Made by a program: the position numbers and the translations under genes. A DNA stretch of 64,000 bases from assembly GCA_963716345.1 (NCBI GenBank), contig OY970304.1:2075483-2139482 (forward strand), given 5' to 3'. Below, in pieces: positions 1,843 through 56,300 of the stretch. Source of the DNA: an uncultured Solirubrobacterales bacterium. Lineage in GTDB: Bacteria > Actinomycetota > Thermoleophilia > Solirubrobacterales > 70-9. Numbering within the stretch: position 1 is the first letter of the stretch; each line of letters opens with the position of its first letter. The notes beneath the pieces are model-generated. The model was not told the origin of the DNA and did not search any database. It saw only the letters and a list, made by a program, of their open reading frames with translations.

Positions 1843-4700
1843 GCGCCAAGGCAAGAGCTGTCGCTTTCACCGTGATGCTGTCGGTCATGGCACTGCTGCC
1901 GAGCACCGCCGCCCAAGCGATTCCGATCGAATCCTTCAGCGCCCTGCCCACCTCTACCCAGGCCGGAGGGCACCCCGACGTTGCCTTCTCTTTCACGATG
2001 GGAAATCGCCAGTTGGCCTCTCCTGACCCTTGCGCCTGCAGGGACGCCAGGACTATAGGCGTGCACCTGCCGACCGGGCTGATCGGCAACCCTCATGCGA
2101 CCCCGCAGTGCGACATCGCCAGCTTCTCCTCCGAACAGTGTCCGGTCGATTCGCAGATCGGGGTGGTCGAAATCAAAGTATCTGGCAAGCCAGGCGATCC
2201 AGAAGGTGGGGGCATTGCCGCCAATTCCCCAAGCTTTCTGGCGCCCGTGTACAACCTCATACCTCCTCCCGGAGATGTCGCCCTGCTTGGCTTCAAGGCC
2301 GTCTTCAACTTTCCCATCTTTACCGTGGTCGGCGCTCGCACCGACAGCGACTACGGTGTCGATGCGACGGTCGAAAACGTCATTCACTTTTTTCCGCTGC
2401 GTAGCGTCAAGCAGGTGCTCTGGGGAGTGCCGGCCGATCCCAGCCATGACGATCTGCGGTTCGGGCTGGGGCAGCAGGTACAAGCGGAAGGCAAGCTCTG
2501 CGACGACAACGGCAATCCAAGCACGAACGACCCCTCGACGATGAAACACCTCTGCCTCTTCGGCGGGAAAATCGGCTCGGTTGGCGCCGATGGCGTCGAA
2601 GGCCCCGGCCACGTCGTCTCCTCCAACAGCCCCCTAACCCCTTTCTGGCAGAACCCAACCACCTGCGGGGAATCCCTAGCCACGTCCCTGGACATCCTCG
2701 GCTACGACGACTCAGAAACCCACGCCGACAGCCTCTGGCCCCCCACAACAGACTGCGGCCAGTTGAGCTTCAACCCATCCCTCTTCGCCCGCCCCACAAC
2801 AGAATCAACCGATTCCCCCTCGGGCATAGACGTAGACCTAAAAGCCCCCTCCTTTGAGAGCCCAGACACCCCCTCTCCCTCAGAGATCAGGGGCACCACG
2901 GTCACCCTGCCCCCGGGCTTCTCGATCAACCCCAACGCCGCAGACGGCAAGACCTCCTGCCTGGACCAAGAAGCCAAGTTCGGCACCACAGAAGAAGCCC
3001 AGTGCCCTGAGTTCTCAAAGATCGGCACCCTTGAAGTCCACAGCCCGGTCCTCCCAGGCGTCCTCCCCGGAGCCATCTACATCGGCCACCCCCAAGAAGG
3101 CAAGCGCTACCGCCTCTTCCTCACCTTCGATGGCTTTGGCGTCCACGTAAAGCTCCCGGGAGAGGTCCACCCCGATCCCCAAACAGGCCAGGTCATAACC
3201 GAATTCAAGGACCTGCCCCAGTTCCCCTTCGAAGACTTCAACCTGCACTTCTTTGGCTCTGAACGAGGAGTCCTGGCGACCCCAAGCCAATGCGGCACCT
3301 ATCCGGTCTCCACCCTCTTCGAACCCTGGGACGGCTCCTTGCCAAACCAGACCTCGACCCAGTTCTTCAGCCTGACCTCCGGCCCAGGAGGGACTCCCTG
3401 CCCCAACGGCCCAAGGCCCTTCAACCCGGGCTTCGGAGCAGCCTCCTCCACCAACACCGCCGGCTCCCACACCGGCTTCTCCTTGAACCTGACAAGGCCA
3501 GACGGCGATCAGAACCTCAGCGCCCTTGACGTAACCACCCCGCCCGGCTTCTCGGCCACCCTCAAAGGCATCCCCTACTGCCCCGAGGCAGCGATCGCCG
3601 CCGCAGGGGCAGGCGTCTACTCAGGCGCCCAAGAGCAATCCCACCCCTCCTGTCCCCAGGCAAGCCTCGTAGGAGAAGCGATCGCCGGCTCAGGAGCAGG
3701 CACCCACCCCTTCTACGCCCCGGGAAGGGTCTACCTAGCCGGCCCCTACAAAGGCGCCCCACTGAGCCTGGTCGTGATCACCCCAGCCGTCTCAGGCCCC
3801 TATGACCTCGGAGACGTCGTAGTCAGGACAGCCCTCTACGTCAACCAGACCACGACCCAGGTCTCAGCAGTCTCAGACCCCTTGCCCCAGATCCTCGCCG
3901 GCATCCCATTGCGCCTGCGCTCGATCATGGTCAACCTCAACCGCCAAGGATTCGCCCTCAACCCAACCAACTGCGATCCCTTCTCGACCCAAGCCACGGT
4001 CTTCGGAAGTGAAGGAGCCACCAAGAGCCTTGCCTCCCACTTCCAGGTCGCCAACTGCGCCCGCTTGGACTTCGAACCGAAGCTCGAAACCTCAATCATC
4101 GGCCCGACCAAAAACGGCGCCACCCCTCGCTTCAAGGCGGTCCTGCGGATGCCCCAAGGCGGCGCCAACATCGAACACGTCGCGGTCACCCTGCCGCACT
4201 CCGAGTTCCTCAAACAGGCCCACATCAGAACCGTCTGCACCAGACCCCAGCTCGCCTCCCACAGCTGCCCAGCCGGATCTGTCTATGGCTTTGCCAGAGC
4301 CGAGACCCCGCTGCTAGACAAACCGCTGGAAGGCCCGGTCTACCTCGGCACCGGCTACGGGCACAAGCTGCCCGACCTGATCGCCGAACTAAACGGCCAG
4401 ATCCACGTGATCTTGGACGGCATCATCGACACCGGCAAGGGCGGCGGGATCAGAAACACCTTCGAAATCGTCCCCGATGCCCCCGTCTCCAAGTTCACCT
4501 TGGAAATGCAGGGAGGCAACAAAGGCCTGCTGGAAAACTCAAACGTCTGTGCCCAGCGCAACTACCTGACCGCCAAGTTCTTCGCACAGAACGGCAAGAC
4601 AAGCGTCTCGCACCCGCTGATGCAAGACGGCTGCGGGGCCAAAGGAAGGCACGAACGCCACAAGCGAGACGCCAAGCGCAACCGGGGGGTGGGTAAGTGA
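1839..4700 (+). CDS. Secreted ~950-aa protein of unknown function (module B, copy 1). The mature N-terminus carries the motif QAGGHPD.
   Basis: ORF 1824..4700. Preferred start is GTG 1839, which overlaps the upstream TGA (GTGA), with GGAGGG 7 nt upstream. SAKARAVAFTVMLSVMALLPSTAAQA looks like a Sec signal peptide. Collinear with 9314..12022 over its whole length. I recognise no known domain. Confidence 0.7.
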   Translation: MSAKARAVAFTVMLSVMALLPSTAAQAIPIESFSALPTSTQAGGHPDVAFSFTMGNRQLASPDPCACRDARTIGVHLPTGLIGNPHATPQCDIASFSSEQCPVDSQIGVVEIKVSGKPGDPEGGGIAANSPSFLAPVYNLIPPPGDVALLGFKAVFNFPIFTVVGARTDSDYGVDATVENVIHFFPLRSVKQVLWGVPADPSHDDLRFGLGQQVQAEGKLCDDNGNPSTNDPSTMKHLCLFGGKIGSVGADGVEGPGHVVSSNSPLTPFWQNPTTCGESLATSLDILGYDDSETHADSLWPPTTDCGQLSFNPSLFARPTTESTDSPSGIDVDLKAPSFESPDTPSPSEIRGTTVTLPPGFSINPNAADGKTSCLDQEAKFGTTEEAQCPEFSKIGTLEVHSPVLPGVLPGAIYIGHPQEGKRYRLFLTFDGFGVHVKLPGEVHPDPQTGQVITEFKDLPQFPFEDFNLHFFGSERGVLATPSQCGTYPVSTLFEPWDGSLPNQTSTQFFSLTSGPGGTPCPNGPRPFNPGFGAASSTNTAGSHTGFSLNLTRPDGDQNLSALDVTTPPGFSATLKGIPYCPEAAIAAAGAGVYSGAQEQSHPSCPQASLVGEAIAGSGAGTHPFYAPGRVYLAGPYKGAPLSLVVITPAVSGPYDLGDVVVRTALYVNQTTTQVSAVSDPLPQILAGIPLRLRSIMVNLNRQGFALNPTNCDPFSTQATVFGSEGATKSLASHFQVANCARLDFEPKLETSIIGPTKNGATPRFKAVLRMPQGGANIEHVAVTLPHSEFLKQAHIRTVCTRPQLASHSCPAGSVYGFARAETPLLDKPLEGPVYLGTGYGHKLPDLIAELNGQIHVILDGIIDTGKGGGIRNTFEIVPDAPVSKFTLEMQGGNKGLLENSNVCAQRNYLTAKFFAQNGKTSVSHPLMQDGCGAKGRHERHKRDAKRNRGVGK

Positions 4701-7700
4701 AGCGCCTAGTCCGACATCTTCCCGTCGTGGGGATCTTGATCGCCGCTTCCTTGGCGCTCAGCGCTTCCTCAGCCTCAGCCCTCTCCAAACACGTCTTTGC
4801 GACCTCCTTCGCAGGCTCAGGCACCAACGCCCTCTCCAACCCCTCTGACGTCGACATCGACCAGAGCAACGGCGACGTCTACGTCACCGATCCCGCTCAC
4901 TTCCGCATCGAGAAGTTCGATGCCTCGGGCAACTTCATCCTGATGTTCGGCAAGGGGGTCGATGCGACTACTGGCGGGGATGTGTGCACGGAGGCTTCGG
5001 GGGATGTCTGTCAGGCCGGGGCCAAGGGGAGTGGGCCGGGGGCTTTTGATGGGGAATTTGAAAGCGAAGGCGTTCAAGAACGCCTCTTCCTCGCCGTCGA
5101 CAACTCCGGCGGCCCATCCAACGGCGACATCTACGTCGGCGATCCGGCCACCAGCCTGGTCCAGAAGTTCGACTCCGCAGGCAACCTGATCACTAGCTGG
5201 GGCAAAGGCGGGCAGCTCGACGGGGCTGCTGAACATGAAAAGAAGTTCTTTCCCGACGGATTGCAGGGAATAGCCGTCAATCCAAGTGGGACCCTCTACG
5301 TGTTGGCTGGATACCTCAAGCTTGAGTTCTTCGAGTTTGAACAGGACGGCACGCCTATAAAGCAGCTCTTTGGGGAAGTTTTCCCTACTATCACCGGGCT
5401 CGCCGTTGATGGGGTGGGTGACCTCTATGTCCCAGGGGGATCCTCTGTCTTCAAGCTCGCGCCCAATCCCAAAGAAAAGATCGGCGCCGTAAACGCAGAA
5501 AGTAACGGGTTCGGAGTCTCCGGCTTGCGCATCGATCCGTCCTCAAACGACCTCTACCTCACCCACTTCCACGCCACCGAACACGACGGCGTGATCGAAC
5601 ACTTCTCTGCCGCCTGCAACCCGATTCCCAACCCCTGTGAAGCGGCCGATAGCTTCGGCGAAGGCAACCTGAACGAACCGCGCGGCGTCGCAATCAACGA
5701 CGCAACCGGCGCCGCCTATGTAGCCGACACTGGCAACGGCCGGGTGGCGGTCTTTACGGCAGAACCATTCCTTCCCGACGCCACGGCTGCGGCCGAAGCG
5801 CAGACTCCAAGCACGGAGGAACTCAAAGGAAAAGCCGACCCCGCAGGCGCCGGCCCGATCACCGCCTGCCACTTCCAATACGTCAGCGATGCCGCCTTTG
5901 ACAAAGAAGCCTTCGCCGATCTCAGCTCGGGCGGCAGCGTTCCCTGCGCCGAGGGCCAGTCTCTGGCCTCTGCCACAGAAGTCCATGGCGAACTGAGCGG
6001 CCTCACCTATGGCTCGGAATACCACTACCGCCTCTTGCTCGAAAACGCCAAAGGCACCAACGCCAGCTTTGATCAGAGCTTTGAGTCCTTGCCCCTGGCG
6101 CCGAGCCTTGAAGCCGAGTCGGCATCAAACGTCAACTCCGACACCGCCCGCATCCATGCCCTGATCAACCCCAACGGGGGAGACGCCACCTACCACACGA
6201 CCTACCACGTGGAATACGTCACTCAGGAAGGCTTTGAAGTGGGCGAATTCTCAGGAGCCCTGCAGAGCAAAAGCATCGACGCCGGCTCGGCCAGGACCCC
6301 CCAGGCGATCACCGCCCAGCTCTCGGGTCTTGCCGCCGACACCACCTACCACTACCGGGTGGTAGCCCAGAACGCCTCAGGCACGACCAAAGGCACTCCG
6401 CGCACCTTCACGACCTTCCCTACCGCGACCCCGACCATCGACCCCTGCTCCAACGCCCACGTGCGCCAGCAGACCGGCGCGGTTCGTCTCTTGGACTGTC
6501 GTGCCTATGAGCTGGTCTCCGCCGCCAACACCGGCGGCTATGACGTCGAGTCGAGCCTGATCGCAGGCCAAAGCCCCTTCCCGGGCTACCCAGAGGCAGA
6601 AGGCAAGGTCCTCTACGGCGTCCACAACGGCGGCATTCCCGGTACCGATCACCCGACCAACAAAGGCCTTGACCCCTATATCGCCACCAGGGGAGAAAAC
6701 GGCTGGGAAACCCAATACGAGGGAGTCCCCTCAAATGACCCCTACTCCGCCGCCCCCTTCTCCTCGCTGCCAACCGGGGCCAGCCAAGATCTGAAGACCC
6801 TTGCATTCGGAGCACCAGGTGGCTGCTCGCCTTGCTTTGAAGGCGGCTATACGGGCATCCCGCTGAGAAGGCCAAACGGAGAACTGGTCAACGGCATGGT
6901 CGGACCTGAAAACCCGGGCCCCACTGCCAAATCCCAAGGCCTGGTTGCAAAGCCCCTCTCAGCCGACGGCTCCCACTTCGTCTTTGGCTCGACCTCGAAG
7001 TTCACCGCAGACGCAAACGAAGGGCAGCTTGGGATCTATGACCGCAACCTGAACACCAACCAGACCTACCTCATCTCAAAGACCCCCGGCGAAGCGCAGA
7101 TGAGCGGAGCAGAAGTCGCAGAGCTAGACATCTCCAAAGACGGCTCCCACGTCCTGCTCGGCCAGCTTGTCTCCGAAGAAGAAGGAAACAAGCTCTACCA
7201 CCTTCTATCTGAACGTCGGGGACTCCTCAAAGACGATCGACTTGACCCCTGGGACCACCACTGGCGTTCTCTATGCCGGCATGTCTTCCGATGGCTCCAA
7301 GGTCTTCTTCACGACCACCGACGAACTGCTCTCCGAAGACGAAGATGAAAGCGCTGACCTCTACGCGGCAACCATCTCCGGCGAAAGCGCCAGCCTCACA
7401 TTGCTCTCTACCGGCTCGGAAGGAACCGGCAACACCGATGCCTGCAACCCAGCCGCCAACTCCGCTCACGAGCATTGGAACACGAAGGGCGAAGAAGCCA
7501 ACTGCGGCGTAGTCGCAGTTGGCGGTGGTGGGGGAGTGGCCTCCGAAGAGGGCTCTGTCTACTTCCTCTCGCCCGAGCGCCTTGACGGCTCCTCTAACGG
7601 GACCGAGGATGCGCCGAACCTCTACCTGGCGAGCCCCGGCTCGGCGCCTCGATACGTGACGACACTTGAATCGGTTGTTAACGGGCCCCAGCCACCGGCC

Positions 7701-14912: not shown

Positions 14913-14920
14913 AGTTCTGA
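14913..14920. repeat. 8-bp target-site duplication AGTTCTGA (left copy) of the IS1-family transposon.
   Basis: The identical octamer abuts the outer side of the right inverted repeat at 18590..18597. Confidence 0.85.
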
Positions 14921-14939
14921 GGCAGTGGGTCAGTTTGAA
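14921..14939. repeat. Left terminal inverted repeat of the IS1-family transposon.
   Basis: GGCAGTGGGTCAGTTTGAA. It is the exact reverse complement of 18571..18589. Confidence 0.85.
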
Positions 14940-15272
14940 TCTCCGGCCTCGCATCTGGGCGGGGGCTAAGCTCACTGGATGGCAGCGAGGGTCAATGCCC
15001 GAACTGCGGGCACCAGATCGGGATACCGGGCATGTTCCACGGCACCGACTCGATGACGATGCATACGCACCGCGAGTGCCCCAACTGCAACCGACTGCTG
15101 ATCTGGTTCAAGGACGCGGAGGAGCTTCCCGAAGGCTGGTTACTTGACGAGCAAGAGGAGGGGCGGCGCCAACGGGCAGAAGGCTAGTCCAGCAGCGCCC
15201 CCGGCGAACGGGCTTGGATGGGGCGGCGCGGTGCATAGCAGACCTTGCCGTTGACCCCATCGGGCTTTCTCG

Positions 15273-16025
15273 CTACTCTGCTCTTACCCCCTCAGGCCGC
15301 TTTGCGGTGGCCTGAGATGCGGAGCCGCCTTGTGCGGCTCTCGCTATTTCTGGGGCCTTGGTCCACCCCGTTGGGCACCTGATTGGCCCTTCCTCGTCGC
15401 TTAGGTCCAAGGGAAGCTGGGCTTTGCGGAGTCGCCGGGGCTGTATCTCCTGGTAGAAGGACTTCGCAGGGATCTTGTGCGGGGAGAGGGCGTAGCTCCT
15501 CACCGAATGAGGGTTAATGATGCCGACCCCAGCGTCATAGACCTGACGCACGATCTCAACGGGTGTCTTCAGGTCGCTGTCGTTGGAGATCACGACAGCG
15601 AGGTCGTAGCGAGCACGCGAGCCGTCAACGAGCAGATGGCTCGCGAGGTTCACGTCCGATCCCTTCTCCTCATGGACCCAAACCTCGCGCAAGCCGATAT
15701 CGCCCTTCTTCCCGCGCTTCGGGGGATTCGTCAAAAGGCGAGTGGCTTTTCGGGTCAGGAACCGGCCATAGATGATCTCGACCTTCGGCAAAGTCTTGAG
15801 CGCCCGTAGATATTCCCGCTGCTGCTTTTGCTGCCCGGGATTGTCTGGTCGGTCTTTGACTTTCGCCGTGAAGTATTTGATCGATACGAGTTCCGCGCCT
15901 GGCTTCACATACTGGCGACAGAGGGCTTCGATATCGAGCCAGCGGTAGGGCTTTCCACGGAGGGAGCCGTAGTAGAGATTGAAGCCATCGATGTAAAAAC
16001 TCATGCGCTTCTTTGGGTACATCAT
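15273..16025 (-). CDS. NYN-domain (LabA/DUF88-like, PIN-related) putative ribonuclease.
   Basis: MSFYIDGFNLYYG... and ...EKGSDVNLASHLLVDGSRARYDLAVVISNDSDLKTPVEIV match the NYN/LabA signature (N-terminal Asp, EKGxD, SxDsD). It starts 17 nt after the transposase stop on the same strand. Confidence 0.75.
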   Translation of the reverse strand: MMYPKKRMSFYIDGFNLYYGSLRGKPYRWLDIEALCRQYVKPGAELVSIKYFTAKVKDRPDNPGQQKQQREYLRALKTLPKVEIIYGRFLTRKATRLLTNPPKRGKKGDIGLREVWVHEEKGSDVNLASHLLVDGSRARYDLAVVISNDSDLKTPVEIVRQVYDAGVGIINPHSVRSYALSPHKIPAKSFYQEIQPRRLRKAQLPLDLSDEEGPIRCPTGWTKAPEIARAAQGGSASQATAKRPEGVRAE

Positions 16026-16042
16026 CGGCCGAGAACTTATCC

Positions 16043-16885
16043 CTAGTCCAGCAGCGCCGCAATCTCTTCAAGCGACCAGACGTGATCCGCCACCCCAGCA
16101 GCCATTGCCGGAGTCCGGGGGTAGCGCTCCTTGAGCGCTGTATGCGAGCGAGCGAAGTTGTAGTGCATGAAGTGCAAGGAAACGGCGTGGGAGAGGTTCT
16201 CGACCTTGCGGCTGAATCCATTGGTCAGCCGAGTAAAGCGCCGCATCCCCATCCGCATCGTCAAGTTCTGCCGCTCCACGTAGCTGGTTGAGATCCGGTC
16301 CGGGTCGGGGTCGCCCTTCCGGGTGAGGCGCTTCGTCCCGGTGCAGACGGCCGGGCTGTATTTGCCCGCCTCCCCGCCGGAGGCATAGACCTTGTGGATC
16401 TGCGCCCAATCGACCTGATGGCGGAAGGACGGCCCCACGGTGCCTTCGTACATCCGGTGGCCGTCAGTCGATAGCTGGATACGGTTGCCCATCCGGCTCG
16501 CCAGATCGGTGAGGAAGACTTCGGCATCGTCTGAGGTCCGCTCCCCGACCAGCCAGGAGGGGACCAGCTTCGTATCGGCGCAGATCGCCGTGAAAGTCCA
16601 AACGTCGCCGTAGCCCGGAGTCCCTTTGAACTCCTCCGGCACGTTCTTGTTCTTCGCGTAGCAGAAGGCCCAAATCTCATCGGCCTCAACGACCTTGCAG
16701 GGAAGGTCCACGAACACGCCGTCCTGGTACTCGGCGCAGGCTTCCCCGAGATCGACCAGCAGTTTGGTGATCGTGTTCTTCGCTGCCCCGGTCATCCGCA
16801 CCGTGGCGCGGATCGAGTTGCCCTCGACCAGGCAGCCGACGATCTGGGCGCGCTTCTCGGTGGAGAGCCTGTTCATACTGACCAT
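16043..16885 (-). CDS. IS1-family DDE transposase.
   Basis: Part of ORF 16043..17002, trimmed to ATG 16885 (MVSMNRLSTEKRAQIVGCLVEGNSIR: N-terminal HTH). The C-terminal signature SYVERQNLTMRMGMRRFTRLTNGFSRKVENLSHAVSLHFMHYNFARSH is typical of IS1-type transposases. Confidence 0.85.
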   Translation of the reverse strand: MVSMNRLSTEKRAQIVGCLVEGNSIRATVRMTGAAKNTITKLLVDLGEACAEYQDGVFVDLPCKVVEADEIWAFCYAKNKNVPEEFKGTPGYGDVWTFTAICADTKLVPSWLVGERTSDDAEVFLTDLASRMGNRIQLSTDGHRMYEGTVGPSFRHQVDWAQIHKVYASGGEAGKYSPAVCTGTKRLTRKGDPDPDRISTSYVERQNLTMRMGMRRFTRLTNGFSRKVENLSHAVSLHFMHYNFARSHTALKERYPRTPAMAAGVADHVWSLEEIAALLD

Positions 16886-16992
16886 TATGCGTAAGCGTTC
16901 GGACAGAAAAAAGCAGGGGAATACACCCAACGTGCGTAGCTTGACGCATTGGCTAACGTAAATACGTGGGTAGTCGATATAGGCTGCACGAG

Positions 16993-17077
16993 CGGAGGGC
17001 ACGGGGGTCGAACCCGTAAACGCTAGGCACGTTGCCCGATTGAAAATCGGGTTGGTTCACCAAATACCAGGCCCTCC
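16993..17077 (-). tRNA. Atypical class-II (long variable arm) tRNA-like gene. Predicted anticodon UUC, discriminator G, no encoded CCA.
   Basis: Manual fold of the minus strand:
- acceptor GGAGGGC/GCCCTCC
- D arm GGT-AUUUGGUGA-ACC
- anticodon arm CCCGA-UUUUCAA-UCGGG
- 17-nt variable arm with an AACG/CGUU stem
- T arm ACGGG-UUCGACC-CCCGU
Position 8 is C rather than U. Not run through tRNAscan-SE. Confidence 0.55.
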
Positions 17078-17235
17078 ATGATGTGGCGAGGACGGAGCGC
17101 TACAACGCTCCGCCCCCGCCTGTAAGGGGGGTGGCGGGCCGGGTCCAGGTCTAAATCGGGAAGCCGGCCCGCACTCTCATCTTCTGGACATCGTTGGCTC
17201 CTGCGTCTTCATGCACAGCCGACTATCAGCCGCGC

Positions 17236-17270
17236 TGTAAAACGACGAAGGGAGCCCGCGGGCTCCCTTC
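17236..17270 (-). terminator. Intrinsic terminator-like hairpin (minus strand).
   Basis: Perfect 24-nt palindrome GAAGGGAGCCCGCGGGCUCCCUUC (17247-17270), followed on the minus strand by GUCGUUUUA. Confidence 0.5.
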
Positions 17271-17490
17271 GCAAGCTCGGTGACGGTGGACAACGCCGGG
17301 CACAAGGCCGCCTCCCAACGGGTGGGCTGCGTCGAAGACAAAAAGGTCTTTCCGGCGATGGCTTCCTTTCCTGAGCTCGCGAGTGGTTGTTCACGCCGAT
17401 CGCGGGGCTCGGAATGCAGATGTCTATTGCGCAGAACGGTAGCCAGCGCCGCGGATGTATCCGCATGCATGACGGCGTCGCAATGTGCAG

Positions 17491-17528
17491 AAACGACAAA
17501 GGGCCGCCGGAAGCCGTGGCGACCCTTT
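17491..17528 (-). terminator. Intrinsic terminator-like hairpin downstream of the 18457..17715 operon (minus strand).
   Basis: Stem GGGUCGCC/GGCGGCCC (one mismatch) with a 9-nt loop, followed on the minus strand by UUUGUCGUUU. Confidence 0.5.
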
Positions 17529-17714
17529 GCCTAAGTCCTTCCCCATCGCAGGCTGGAAGGCAGCGTGAACAAGGGGGACTATAGGACGGCTAGGGGCGGA
17601 AAACTGCAGTAAAAATCCGGGCTTTTTGGCTCTAGAAAGCCAAGTGCATAATGCGACTTATGCCCATTTGGCGCCCTGAGTGGCTTTGGCGCCAACCGGC
17701 AGATCTCCCAGTTT

Positions 17715-17933
17715 TTAAGATTTCCAACGAGCCTGCGCAGCGCGCTTAGCGGCAGCCGACCTTTCCTCCGCCGTCATGCGCTCAGCGCGCACCTTGCCAC
17801 CCTTACGGCCTCCTACTCGCCCAGCACGCGCCTGTGAGGTCTCTGGCTGCGGGGGCGTCTCATCGGTCGCATCGCCGACGATGGCAGCAGCGAGGCGGTT
17901 CAGATCAGCAGGCTTCTTGGACTGCTTGGCCAT
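17715..17933 (-). CDS. Small basic protein (72 aa), third gene of the wHTH-XRE cassette.
   Basis: MAKQSKKPADLNRL...GGRKGGKVRAERMTAEERSAAAKRAAQARWKS. It starts 3 nt after the XRE gene stop. Function unknown. Confidence 0.5.
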   Translation of the reverse strand: MAKQSKKPADLNRLAAAIVGDATDETPPQPETSQARAGRVGGRKGGKVRAERMTAEERSAAAKRAAQARWKS

Positions 17934-17936
17934 GGC

Positions 17937-18212
17937 TCAGAGCGTAGCGTCCTGATCGGGCTTGAACCGGCCGCGCTGGAAGTCTCCCGGCTCCCAGTCG
18001 ATCCCGTCGAACAGGTCGCCCGGATCGACGCCGAGGACCGCTGCGAGCTTCGCCGCCGTATCGATCCTGGGGATGCGAGTGCCCCTCTCGATGTAGCTGA
18101 CCGCTGTGGGATGCAGCGAGGCGCGCATGGCCGTCTCTTCCTGCGAGAGGCCCGCTCGCTTGCGGCAGTAGCGCAGGTTGGCTCCGAATTGCGCTGCCAC
18201 GTCCATGCTCAC
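17937..18212 (-). CDS. XRE-family helix-turn-helix transcriptional regulator.
   Basis: FGANLRYCRKRAGLSQEETAMRASLHPTAVSYIERGTRIPRIDTAAKLAAVLGV is a canonical Cro/C1-type HTH. Paralog of 30080..30394. Confidence 0.8.
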   Translation of the reverse strand: MSMDVAAQFGANLRYCRKRAGLSQEETAMRASLHPTAVSYIERGTRIPRIDTAAKLAAVLGVDPGDLFDGIDWEPGDFQRGRFKPDQDATL

Positions 18213-18457
18213 AAGATCTCCAAGCGATGGCAGTGGTAGGCCGCGTCGGTCAGAAGGAGGGTCTGACCGTGAAGCCGGATCAGACCGTAATTGCTGAGCC
18301 GCCTTACGGCGTGCTCAACGAGTTCCTTGTTGCCGATCTCACGGCTCATTTCGGGCATCGTCCTGTGATGCGGGTGGCAGGCCAGCGCAAGTGCCAGCAC
18401 CGCCCGCTCGGTGCGTTCGTGGTCTTTCGGCGTGTGCCGAATACGCTTCGCCTGCAT
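18209..18457 (-). CDS. Small winged-helix-like DNA-binding protein (82 aa), upstream partner of the XRE gene (4-nt overlap).
   Basis: RAVLALALACHPHHRTMPEMSREIGNKELVEHAVRRLSNYGLIRLHG is a wHTH-like pattern. Paralog of 30391..30639. Confidence 0.6.
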   Translation of the reverse strand: MQAKRIRHTPKDHERTERAVLALALACHPHHRTMPEMSREIGNKELVEHAVRRLSNYGLIRLHGQTLLLTDAAYHCHRLEIL

Positions 18458-18570
18458 CGGAACTCCGTTTCCGGTGCCGGGCCGGGGGACCGTTCGCGCG
18501 GTTGCCCCGGCCGTTTGATTTGTTGACGCTGGCGAAGCTAGAGCAAGGCGGCGCTGCGATCTAGGGCCAT

Positions 18571-18589
18571 TTCAAACTGACCCACTGCC
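18571..18589. repeat. Right terminal inverted repeat of the IS1-family transposon.
   Basis: TTCAAACTGACCCACTGCC is the reverse complement of 14921..14939. Confidence 0.85.
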
Positions 18590-18597
18590 AGTTCTGA
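18590..18597. repeat. 8-bp target-site duplication AGTTCTGA (right copy).
   Basis: Identical to 14913..14920. Confidence 0.85.
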
Positions 18598-56046: not shown

Positions 56047-56300
56047 GTCCCTCTCTTTCGTTCGCCTACGGAGTTAGCTGTCGGGCTCGCGCTGAAAGAG
56101 ATGCGCTACGACCTTTTCGGCCGATTCGCCCCTGGAACCTGCAACGGTTCCTGCGGTTCCTCCGCTCCCACCCACCATGTGCGGCTGGGATTAGGCACTT
56201 ATTGGCGCGGCAGTATAGACACCCGCACGGCCACCTACGCCAATGTGGCTTGGCGGCTATCATGCCGGAGCCGCTGGGCGCTGCCCGCGGTTTTTCTCTG

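Follow-up and report, generated by a model that had tools for sequence, protein, structure and literature searches.

A tRNA-like gene carried by an IS1-type transposon

The stretch of DNA analysed here (the window) comprises 64,000 nucleotides (nt) of contig OY970304.1, from an uncultured Solirubrobacterales bacterium (assembly GCA_963716345.1, positions 2,075,483 to 2,139,482), and includes a transposon that carries a class-II tRNA-like gene on the minus strand. This gene lies at 16993..17077, measures 85 nt to its discriminator G and presents the anticodon UUC; it is defined by its sequence, by an ARAGORN call and by a homolog in a soil metagenome (locus L084). A first-pass annotation had proposed that the gene is transposon-borne, and we found that terminal inverted repeats (TIRs) and a target-site duplication indeed delimit a 3669-bp element at 14921-18589. 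The left TIR (18571..18589; GGCAGTGGGTCAGTTTGAA read inward) and the right TIR (14921..14939) form a perfect 19-bp inverted pair, and the same 8-mer, TCAGAACT on the minus strand, occurs as a direct repeat outside them, at 18590..18597 on the left and 14913..14920 on the right. In being bracketed by TIRs and a short target-site duplication, the element conforms to the IS1 family. Along the minus strand, it encodes an 82-amino-acid open reading frame (ORF), an XRE-type helix-turn-helix (HTH) protein and a 72-amino-acid protein, followed by approximately 640 nt of non-coding DNA that ends in the tRNA unit, and then by the transposase and an NYN-domain protein; a small zinc-ribbon ORF on the other strand, after the NYN gene, is the last gene of the element.

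For comparison, we used 80 genome loci with a related transposase. The same TIR pair flanks the transposase in nearly all of them; as a rule, the right TIR directly adjoins the stop codon of the transposase gene and the left one is found 1-3 kb upstream of that gene, so that the family has a long left arm. In close relatives of the window element, the left-arm genes and the transposase are conserved, whereas the stretch between them is wholly different and holds ATPases, HTH or toxin-antitoxin-like genes and zinc-ribbon proteins. Because this stretch differs among relatives while both sides are conserved, we conclude that the tRNA unit is cargo, and not part of the transposition core. Together, these results identify a genuine RNA element of the size of a gene and with the fold of a tRNA, which a transposon of a Solirubrobacterales genome carries as cargo in its variable left arm.

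Sequence and fold

Read from 17077 to 16993, the minus strand gives GGAGGGC-CU-GGU-AUUUGGUGA-ACC-AA-CCCGA-UUUUCAA-UCGGG-C-AACGU-GCCUA-GCGUU-U-ACGGG-UUCGACC-CCCGU-GCCCUCC-G. The parts of the cloverleaf that had been described are all present in this sequence: the 7-bp acceptor stem GGAGGGC/GCCCUCC, a D loop with the GG dinucleotide, the anticodon stem CCCGA/UCGGG with the 7-nt loop UUUUCAA and anticodon UUC, a 17-nt variable region with the stem AACGU/GCGUU, and the T arm ACGGG-UUCGACC-CCCGU followed by the discriminator G. No CCA is encoded at the 3' end, and both the sequence and ARAGORN give a 7/5 split between acceptor and T stems. Compared with a canonical bacterial tRNA, the gene has the 7-bp acceptor, the 5-bp T stem, the T loop UUCRANY, G18G19, the 7-nt anticodon loop, U33 and a purine at position 37; U8, the two-nt 8-9 linker and the single nt 26 are absent. 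As the annotation had noted, position 8 is C, and this residue is shared by the L084 homolog.

The D region is irregular and admits two layouts. In one, a single nt joins the acceptor stem to a 4-bp D stem; in the other, a 3-bp D stem (GGU/ACC) is followed by two nt before the anticodon stem. Because a U9A difference in L084 abolishes the U9-A25 pair, the conserved D stem is the 3-bp GGU/ACC, as in class-II tRNAs. The minimum-energy fold retains the acceptor, anticodon and variable stems (z = -3.3 against shuffles).

ARAGORN called a tRNA-Glu(ttc) of 86 nt at 16992-17077 (-), its sole tRNA call across the window, and thus, like the sequence itself, bears out the combination of class-II architecture with anticodon UUC. 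Sixty dinucleotide shuffles of the window yielded four calls, all of long-arm types and 86-95 nt in length; at approximately 0.07 such calls per shuffled window, the ARAGORN call is by itself weak evidence. At very low stringency, the program returned noise only. BLAST of the tRNA-like sequences against E. coli genomes, run to name the nearest tRNA, gave chance matches only.

A second copy and evidence for constraint

We scanned metagenomes for the D arm followed by GGTTCGA and recovered a single true homolog, a tRNA array that shares the D arm and two matches due to chance. The homolog lies at 429-513 of L084, a locus from contig Ga0207706_10000017 of a soil metagenome, and an identical copy is present in three further assemblies (L093-L095), which brings the number of samples to four. 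The window and L084 genes are identical at 77 of 85 positions. Reading from the window to L084, the eight differences are U9A, A26C, U32C, the pair A31C and U39G, two variable-loop positions and one T-loop position. The sole stem change, A31-U39 to C31-G39, is compensatory, and the remaining changes fall in loops or linkers, so that all 25 base pairs are kept. Also kept in both copies are the UUC anticodon, U33, A37, G18G19 and the UUCGA of the T loop. In simulations, eight random substitutions left all 25 pairs standard in 0.55% of trials (P = 0.0055), and in 0.18% when a double-sided change was also required.

The tRNA-like gene is part of a larger conserved arrangement. Upstream of it, 17078..17192 (-) forms a block of two G+C-rich hairpins that nhmmer and RNAalifold show to be common to L084 and to two related elements, L031 and L054; the second hairpin, of approximately 15 bp, ends 7 nt before the 5' end of the tRNA-like gene. 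Downstream, the 3' trailer CTCGTGCAGCCTATATCGA (16974..16992, minus strand) is identical to L084 at 18 of 19 positions, and similarity is lost beyond it. The CCTATA motif of this trailer also follows the different tRNAs of L031, L054 and L057; the frame of hairpin block and CCTATA is common to the window, L084, L031, L054 and, in part, L057, with differing tRNA bodies inside. Two hairpins, tRNA-like gene and 19-nt trailer together make up a discrete conserved unit of about 220 nt. Between the window and L084, identity is 78% in the hairpins, 90.6% in the tRNA-like gene and 18/19 in the first 19 nt of the trailer, and falls to random level in both flanks; sequence beyond the unit cannot be aligned. 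The tRNA-like gene is better conserved than the hairpin block, with a Fisher p of 0.02 when gaps are counted and 0.15 for mismatches only.

These data indicate that the cloverleaf is more than chance, because the homolog keeps the fold, with a compensatory change, in an unrelated context. To judge from the substitution pattern, selection appears to have preserved the cloverleaf and its UUC anticodon since the divergence of the two known copies.

We then considered the surroundings of the second copy. In L093, the unit lies between a gene for a 199-amino-acid protein and an IS5-family insertion, and this insertion cuts a remnant of an IS1-type transposase promoter (at the end of TTTTCCGTCCGACT). 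No IS1-type TIR or transposase occurs within 17 kb, which indicates that the tRNA-like gene in L093 has outlived its transposon and is still intact. The unit of about 220 nt therefore also survives elsewhere, in a rearranged remnant without a transposase. A covariance model built from both copies (R1) found no further copy in 85 sources totalling 730 kb; our scans of viral contigs recovered neither the D arm/T loop pattern nor the hairpin block, and a plasmid BLAST with the whole unit was likewise without a match.

Further upstream in the window, a perfect palindrome of 13+13 nt occupies 17246..17271 (-), and TCGTTTT comes directly after it on the minus strand. This inverted repeat is terminator-like and would insulate the tRNA unit from upstream genes; a simple terminator scan did not call it. 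At 17491-17716 (-), the window is 69% identical to L031 1176-1399 over a stretch that contains GCATAA...TTATGC and GGCTTTCTAGAGCCAAAAAGCC motifs. The similarity crosses frames and stop codons, so that the stretch is non-coding and does not represent a conserved ORF separating the left-arm genes from the tRNA-like gene.

Identity of the tRNA-like gene

The body of the gene combines features of one amino acid with the anticodon of another. Seryl-tRNA synthetase (SerRS) does not read the anticodon; in E. coli, its rules include acceptor pairs G2-C71 and A3-U70 and the D-stem pair C11-G24. Glutamyl-tRNA synthetase (GluRS), on the other hand, uses the anticodon as a major identity element. The tRNA-like gene has the Ser-type pairs G1-C72, G2-C71 and A3-U70 (a GGAG start) together with G73, and its variable region, with one unpaired nt, 5 bp, a 5-nt loop and one unpaired nt, has Ser-type geometry. 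It thus shares with tRNA-Ser both a long variable arm of the proper geometry and G73, and the two Ser tRNAs of the array recovered by the metagenome scan (L081) likewise combine a GGA(A/G) acceptor start with G73 and agree with it in variable-arm geometry. Against Ser identity, position 11-24 is G-C, not C-G, and the D loop is unlike that of tRNA-Ser. From these features, we infer a body derived from tRNA-Ser that satisfies the known SerRS rules only partly. Because SerRS ignores the anticodon, charging with Ser is the natural prediction.

Other identities fit less well. The Leu and Tyr tRNAs of L073, L045 and L031 and the Tyr tRNA of L081 have A73, and G73 thus excludes Leu and Tyr among the class-II systems. 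Sec, which has an 8/5 branch, is excluded by the 7/5 branch and the UUC anticodon. The best match within the Rfam tRNA clan is nevertheless the tRNA-Sec model RF01852, at 34.5 bits in E-value mode and under its gathering score of 47 bits; this match includes deletions in the acceptor stem, and the anticodon is UUC rather than UCA, and we rejected it. Nor does the gene belong to tRNA-Glu, which joins an anticodon YUC to a class-I body with a short variable loop: its own UUC sits on a class-II body, and its D arm is unlike the Glu-type D arm of a related element, L005. Finally, the 8/4 or 9/3 branch of allo-tRNAs is excluded by the 7/5 split; an eighth acceptor pair would be C8-U.

tRNA cargo in related elements

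Similar cargo recurs in the family. ARAGORN and Rfam together showed that 11 of the 80 related elements hold tRNAs that pass the Rfam tRNA model RF00005, at 45-65 bits, a range similar to that of ordinary chromosomal tRNAs just outside some elements. Two further in-element tRNA-like genes, in L062 and L070, are sub-threshold, and the other 67 elements are without any; about 14-16% therefore carry one. The carriage of tRNA genes is a recurrent habit of this IS1-type transposon family.

Several of these tRNAs are unusual. At 1767-1851, L031 carries an 85-nt class-II Leu-like tRNA with anticodon CUA and A73 (55.8 bits on RF00005), whose D arm (GUGGCGAAAUUGGCAAACGCG) is identical to the tRNA-Leu of L073 at 19 of 21 positions and whose variable arm reads 1 + 4 bp + 2. 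On paper, this tRNA(CUA) is a candidate leucine-inserting amber suppressor; a suppressor-dependent gene was looked for in L031, and no TAG-interrupted ORF was evident. L054 (3818-3891) and L080 (3789-3862) hold class-I tRNAs with anticodon GCU and G73 that score 64-65 bits and lie approximately 110-140 nt upstream of the transposase. The two elements come from different phyla and have 65% and 40% G+C, respectively, L080 being a metagenome-assembled genome (MAG) of Thermodesulfobacteriota. We know of no standard bacterial tRNA set that joins a class-I body to GCU, since tRNA-Ser(GCU) is normally class II; the body resembles that of tRNA-Arg(UCU) or tRNA-Asn(GUU) with one anticodon change. In addition, L005 carries a Glu-like class-I tRNA(UUC) with C37, L057 a tRNA-like gene with a 27-nt D-loop insertion (3792-3891), and L062 a tRNA-like gene with a D-loop insertion of about 46 nt and the anticodon loop CUUUCAA, again with UUC (3826-3940), in an element that also has an NYN gene.

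An Arg-like tRNA unit of approximately 75 nt (GCCCCCGUAGCUCAGUGGAUAGAGCG...) recurs at varied positions and on either strand: L051 2423-2495 (-), L056 3907-3980 (-), L058 4934-5007 (+), L065 5198-5268 (+) and in L054. Homology among these copies is confined to the tRNA itself, at 75-90% identity. The acceptor, D and T arms are nearly identical, and the copies differ mainly in the anticodon arm, which in some has mismatches or a 6- or 8-nt loop.

The array of L081 (Ga0075426_10062775, 2654 bases) is dense, with at least 18-19 tRNA genes in 2.6 kb, several of them atypical in length or core. Its tRNA-Tyr has the same 15-nt D arm, GGUAUUUGGUGAACC, as the tRNA-like gene of the window.

Other genes and features of the transposon

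The conserved left-arm genes occupy 17715..18457 (-), and blastn aligns 18589-17724 with close relatives. They comprise the 82-amino-acid ORF (18212-18457, minus strand), the XRE-type HTH_3 protein (17940-18212, minus strand) and the 72-amino-acid protein (17715-17933, minus strand), which is rich in Lys, Arg and Ala (...GGRKGGKVRAERMTAEERSAAAKRAAQARW) and conserved across the transposon family. This last protein matched no Pfam, NCBIfam or PADLOC model, and a look-up found one Logan contig whose called gene order is the same as that of the left arm. Its counterpart on a Mesorhizobium loti plasmid (L085 1575-1784) is annotated 'histone H1'.

The transposase (16043..16885, minus strand; 280 amino acids) is probably an IS1-family DDE enzyme, to judge by borderline profile scores and by its named relatives. 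It scores 24.5 bits on Pfam DDE_Tnp_IS1 (PF03400; cut-off 24.1) and 48.9 bits on NCBIfam transpos_IS1, below the cut-off of 100; its more than 8000 relatives are named 'IS1 family transposase' by their sources. The best 120 relatives listed are 85-96% identical and come mostly from Solirubrobacterales MAGs, mostly with one copy per contig; an exact-protein look-up found no record of the transposase itself. Plasmid-borne relatives in Mesorhizobium and Methylocapsa, at about 50% identity, have no tRNA nearby. Abutting the transposase start is a promoter-like block, TTTTCTGTCCGAACGCTTACGCATAATGGTCAGT followed by ATG (16886..16925, minus strand), that the 80 loci have in common, with the sequence TTGACA-N17-GCATAAT in distant relatives and TTCCGTCCGA..GCATAAT in Solirubrobacterales. 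Only the last 40 nt or so before the ATG are conserved in these loci, and everything upstream varies. Since the conserved block directly precedes the ATG, the transposase probably has its own promoter and a leaderless or near-leaderless start.

The final 16-24 nt of the transposase gene (GCGGCGCTGCTGGACTAG) occur a second time beyond the downstream cargo, with copies at 16043-16058 and 15184-15199 in the window, at 4832 and 6718 in L003 and at 6957 in L017. This repeat suggests that downstream cargo may enter the element at its right end or at the transposase 3' end, or through recombination across either. The DNA around the element has 92% identity to a Solirubrobacterales chromosome (L001), where the corresponding site between the TetR and MoeZ-like genes holds an element in the opposite orientation and with different cargo (window 14921-18589 against L001 1467-5499). 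The TetR/MoeZ-like site is occupied in several related MAGs, with cargo differing between genomes; either the resident element inverts and swaps its cargo without leaving the site, or the site is targeted repeatedly. The uniformity of the transposase family, unusual for a gene of a mobile element, and the shared chromosomal site hint at long vertical residence rather than frequent hopping.

A scan of the window at Rfam gathering scores reported only a c-di-AMP riboswitch of the ydaO/yuaA type, at 56048-56207 (-), with 81.5 bits and the full model covered. Sub-threshold local matches (to microRNA families, to Scr6106 and, on the opposite strand, to AS-pc02, with 29.8 bits where 40 would be required) were attributed to G+C-rich hairpins and set aside.

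The NYN neighbour

Cargo downstream of the transposase includes the NYN-domain protein (15273..16025, minus strand; 250 amino acids; Pfam NYN). It is a full-length match to the PADLOC model HEC-09 (E 8.6e-42, residues 6-221 against profile positions 2-202 of 203) and hence a candidate defence protein. Its homologs number in the thousands, some adjoining IS1595-family transposases (L089-L091).

The adjacency of the tRNA-like gene to this NYN gene had been singled out as notable. Among the 80 related elements, only two, L002 and L062, have an NYN gene. Two of the three NYN-bearing elements, those of the window and L062 but not L002, hold a UUC tRNA-like gene, on unrelated bodies (post hoc p approximately 0.003). 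A general association did not emerge: L002 has no tRNA-like gene near its NYN gene, NYN homologs in three other genomic contexts have none nearby, and no NYN gene was called within 17 kb of the L093 copy. A pairing of nuclease and RNA is a weak lead.

Possible functions of the tRNA-like RNA

We favour the reading that this is a cargo tRNA gene with fold and anticodon under constraint, of Ser-type class-II origin and possibly mistranslating. To that statement as a whole, translational use included, we assign a probability of roughly 40%; its core, namely that the gene is real, is cargo and has a fold under constraint, we consider probable. The tRNA unit would be transcribed on its own, downstream of the terminator-like palindrome, and the RNA would be matured like a tRNA. 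If it enters translation, the most likely outcome would be low-level insertion of Ser at GAA/GAG; the recoding or mistranslating tRNA that the first-pass annotation had suggested is a possible reading. Because the core is irregular (C8, a shifted D arm and a score below 29 bits on RF00005), any translational activity would be weak.

Several points weigh against this reading. RF00005, at its gathering score of 29 bits, does not report the gene; the L084 copy is likewise unreported, compared with 45-65 bits for the other in-element tRNAs. With C8 in place of the near-universal U8, a shifted D region and U-U at 15-48, the tertiary core may not form. A scan of 16800-17800 for consensus promoters and terminators found nothing. 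GluRS, which reads the anticodon, could compete with SerRS for the RNA, and a Ser-inserting tRNA(UUC) would be toxic if efficient. The selection signal comes from two sequence variants and eight substitutions. Finally, the degenerate anticodon arms of the Arg-like copies in L058 and L065 suggest that this type of cargo is retained for something other than decoding.

Among the alternatives, the RNA might not decode at all and be kept for its shape, as a decoy, inhibitor or substrate of a protein that binds or cuts tRNAs, or as a signal for processing or stability; the NYN/HEC-09 protein of the same element exemplifies the defence or toxin nucleases that could be its partner. We regard this as a serious alternative, though a somewhat unlikely one. 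It accommodates a conserved fold with an irregular core and a sub-threshold tRNA score, as well as the Arg-like units of L051, L054, L056, L058 and L065 with their variable or degenerate anticodon arms. The cargo of the family is largely defence- or toxin-antitoxin-like, the NYN protein matches HEC-09, and a UUC stem-loop occurs on different bodies in two of the three NYN-bearing elements (window and L062); moreover, a role outside translation was suggested by Mukai et al. for the irregular tRNAs that neighbour toxin-antitoxin systems (PMC5389517). Yet L002 and the three other NYN contexts are without a tRNA-like gene, the L093 copy is without NYN within 17 kb, and a compensated anticodon stem with a kept 7-nt loop (U33, UUC, A37) would be needless for a function of the top half. 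The idea of a captured host tRNA that is now a pseudogene draws on the same sub-threshold score, C8 and irregular D region, which would, like the odd anticodon, reflect decay, with the likeness to L084 due to recent common ancestry. At least two changes separate the Glu anticodon of this Ser-like body from any Ser anticodon, and the second copy, one of two known variants, sits in a decayed element remnant. However, the eight substitutions broke no pair and one change is compensatory; the tRNA-like gene exceeds the hairpin block in conservation, flanks beyond the 220 nt cannot be aligned, and the loop signatures G18G19, UUCGA, U33 and A37 are intact in both copies. By this pattern, from two variants, the decaying pseudogene that the annotation had entertained is disfavoured; we regard a young pseudogene as an unlikely but still serious rival.

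A spare tRNA(UUC) that accepts Glu and either resists a nuclease targeting tRNA-Glu or supplements GAA decoding, as phage-borne tRNAs do, would explain why UUC occurs in three unrelated bodies of the family (window/L084, L005 and L062), and would agree with anticodon recognition by GluRS and with the defence-type cargo of the element. The body, though, has neither the augmented D helix nor the missing residue 47 nor the class-I shape of such a tRNA, and codon usage of the element genes shows no special GAA demand; we consider this role improbable. A structural element serving transposition or transposase expression in cis had also been raised. The gene does precede the transposase by approximately 107 nt in the same orientation, with a similar distance in L031, L054, L057 and L080, but 67 of the 80 relatives have no tRNA-like gene, and in others it follows the transposase or is encoded on the other strand. 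The transposase is itself preceded by a conserved promoter-like block and has a (near-)leaderless start, and the homologous unit persists without any transposase. With tRNAs in about 14-16% of relatives, at varying positions and strands, such a role is very improbable. Least credible is a chance cloverleaf in G+C-rich DNA: for all that shuffled windows give approximately 0.07 long-arm ARAGORN calls each and RF00005 stays sub-threshold, the T loop, G18G19 and U33 are canonical, and the homolog with its compensatory change in an unrelated context has effectively refuted it.

Beyond the single gene, a bolder proposal would be that IS1-type transposons spread identity-switched tRNAs (Ser body with Glu anticodon, Leu body with CUA, class-I body with GCU) between soil bacteria, as mobile modules whose very purpose is to change decoding, by mistranslation or stop suppression, in any host that receives the transposon. 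We think this quite unlikely; if true, altered decoding could be of use under stress or against phages, or could work as a selfish addiction device. Natural tRNAs in which body and anticodon disagree are rare and are raw material of genetic-code change. The transposon family has thousands of copies in soil Solirubrobacterales, with relatives in other phyla, and odd tRNAs appear repeatedly in the same slot, so that interest lies as much in this family-wide pattern as in the single gene of the window. If any cargo tRNA is active, transposition would be a route for altered decoding between genomes; if none is, the family would be a set of selected tRNA-shaped RNAs with a non-translational job. 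Active or not, the tRNA-like gene and the related tRNAs offer short constructs for E. coli reporter systems.

Relation to known systems

Known bacterial tRNAs with such a mismatch are found on chromosomes, in phages or loosely 'near' mobile genes; the gene described here lies inside a small, delimited DDE transposon. Like IS1-family insertion sequences with passengers, this transposon has a DDE transposase named IS1, short TIRs, an 8-bp target-site duplication and extra genes. Unlike a typical IS1, it gives borderline Pfam and NCBIfam matches and has a single-ORF transposase at its right end, behind a long cargo-bearing left arm. A literature search found no paper on ISMhu11 or on tRNA cargo in IS1-family elements.

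Phages carry suppressor tRNAs and tRNAs that evade nucleases. As with these, the carrier here is mobile and the anticodons or loops are unusual, and the Leu-like tRNA(CUA) of L031 resembles phage amber suppressors; the carrier, however, is a DDE transposon of 2-5 kb and not a virus, and the viral contig scans were without a match. In Streptomyces and Kitasatospora, mistranslating tRNA-Pro species with Thr or Ala anticodons are accompanied by a dedicated prolyl-tRNA synthetase. Those tRNAs are likewise actinobacterial, and their body and anticodon likewise specify different amino acids, but they are class I and have a cognate synthetase gene, whereas the tRNA-like gene of the window is without an associated synthetase.

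Mycobacterial tRNA array units, which occur on plasmids, phages and chromosomes, contain around 20 or more tRNAs for most amino acids (PMC5966550, PMC4758250). They too are tRNA genes, often atypical, spread by mobile DNA in Actinomycetota, but the element of the window has a single tRNA in a small transposon. The nearest parallel is offered by the irregular, anticodon-mismatched tRNAs that Mukai et al. (2017; PMC5389517) described in soil bacteria near toxin-antitoxin and transposon-related genes, for which a translational or a regulatory role was left open, and the allo-tRNAs, which are defined by a 12-bp acceptor branch split 8/4 or 9/3 (PMC5389517). Like them, the tRNA-like gene combines an anticodon with a mismatched apparent identity, a group that includes Ser-type bodies charged by SerRS whatever the anticodon, and is associated with soil metagenomes and with mobile or toxin-antitoxin genes. 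It differs in having a 7/5 branch and an irregular D region, in belonging to Actinomycetota rather than Acidobacteria, and in lying inside, not merely near, a DDE transposon with TIRs and a target-site duplication.

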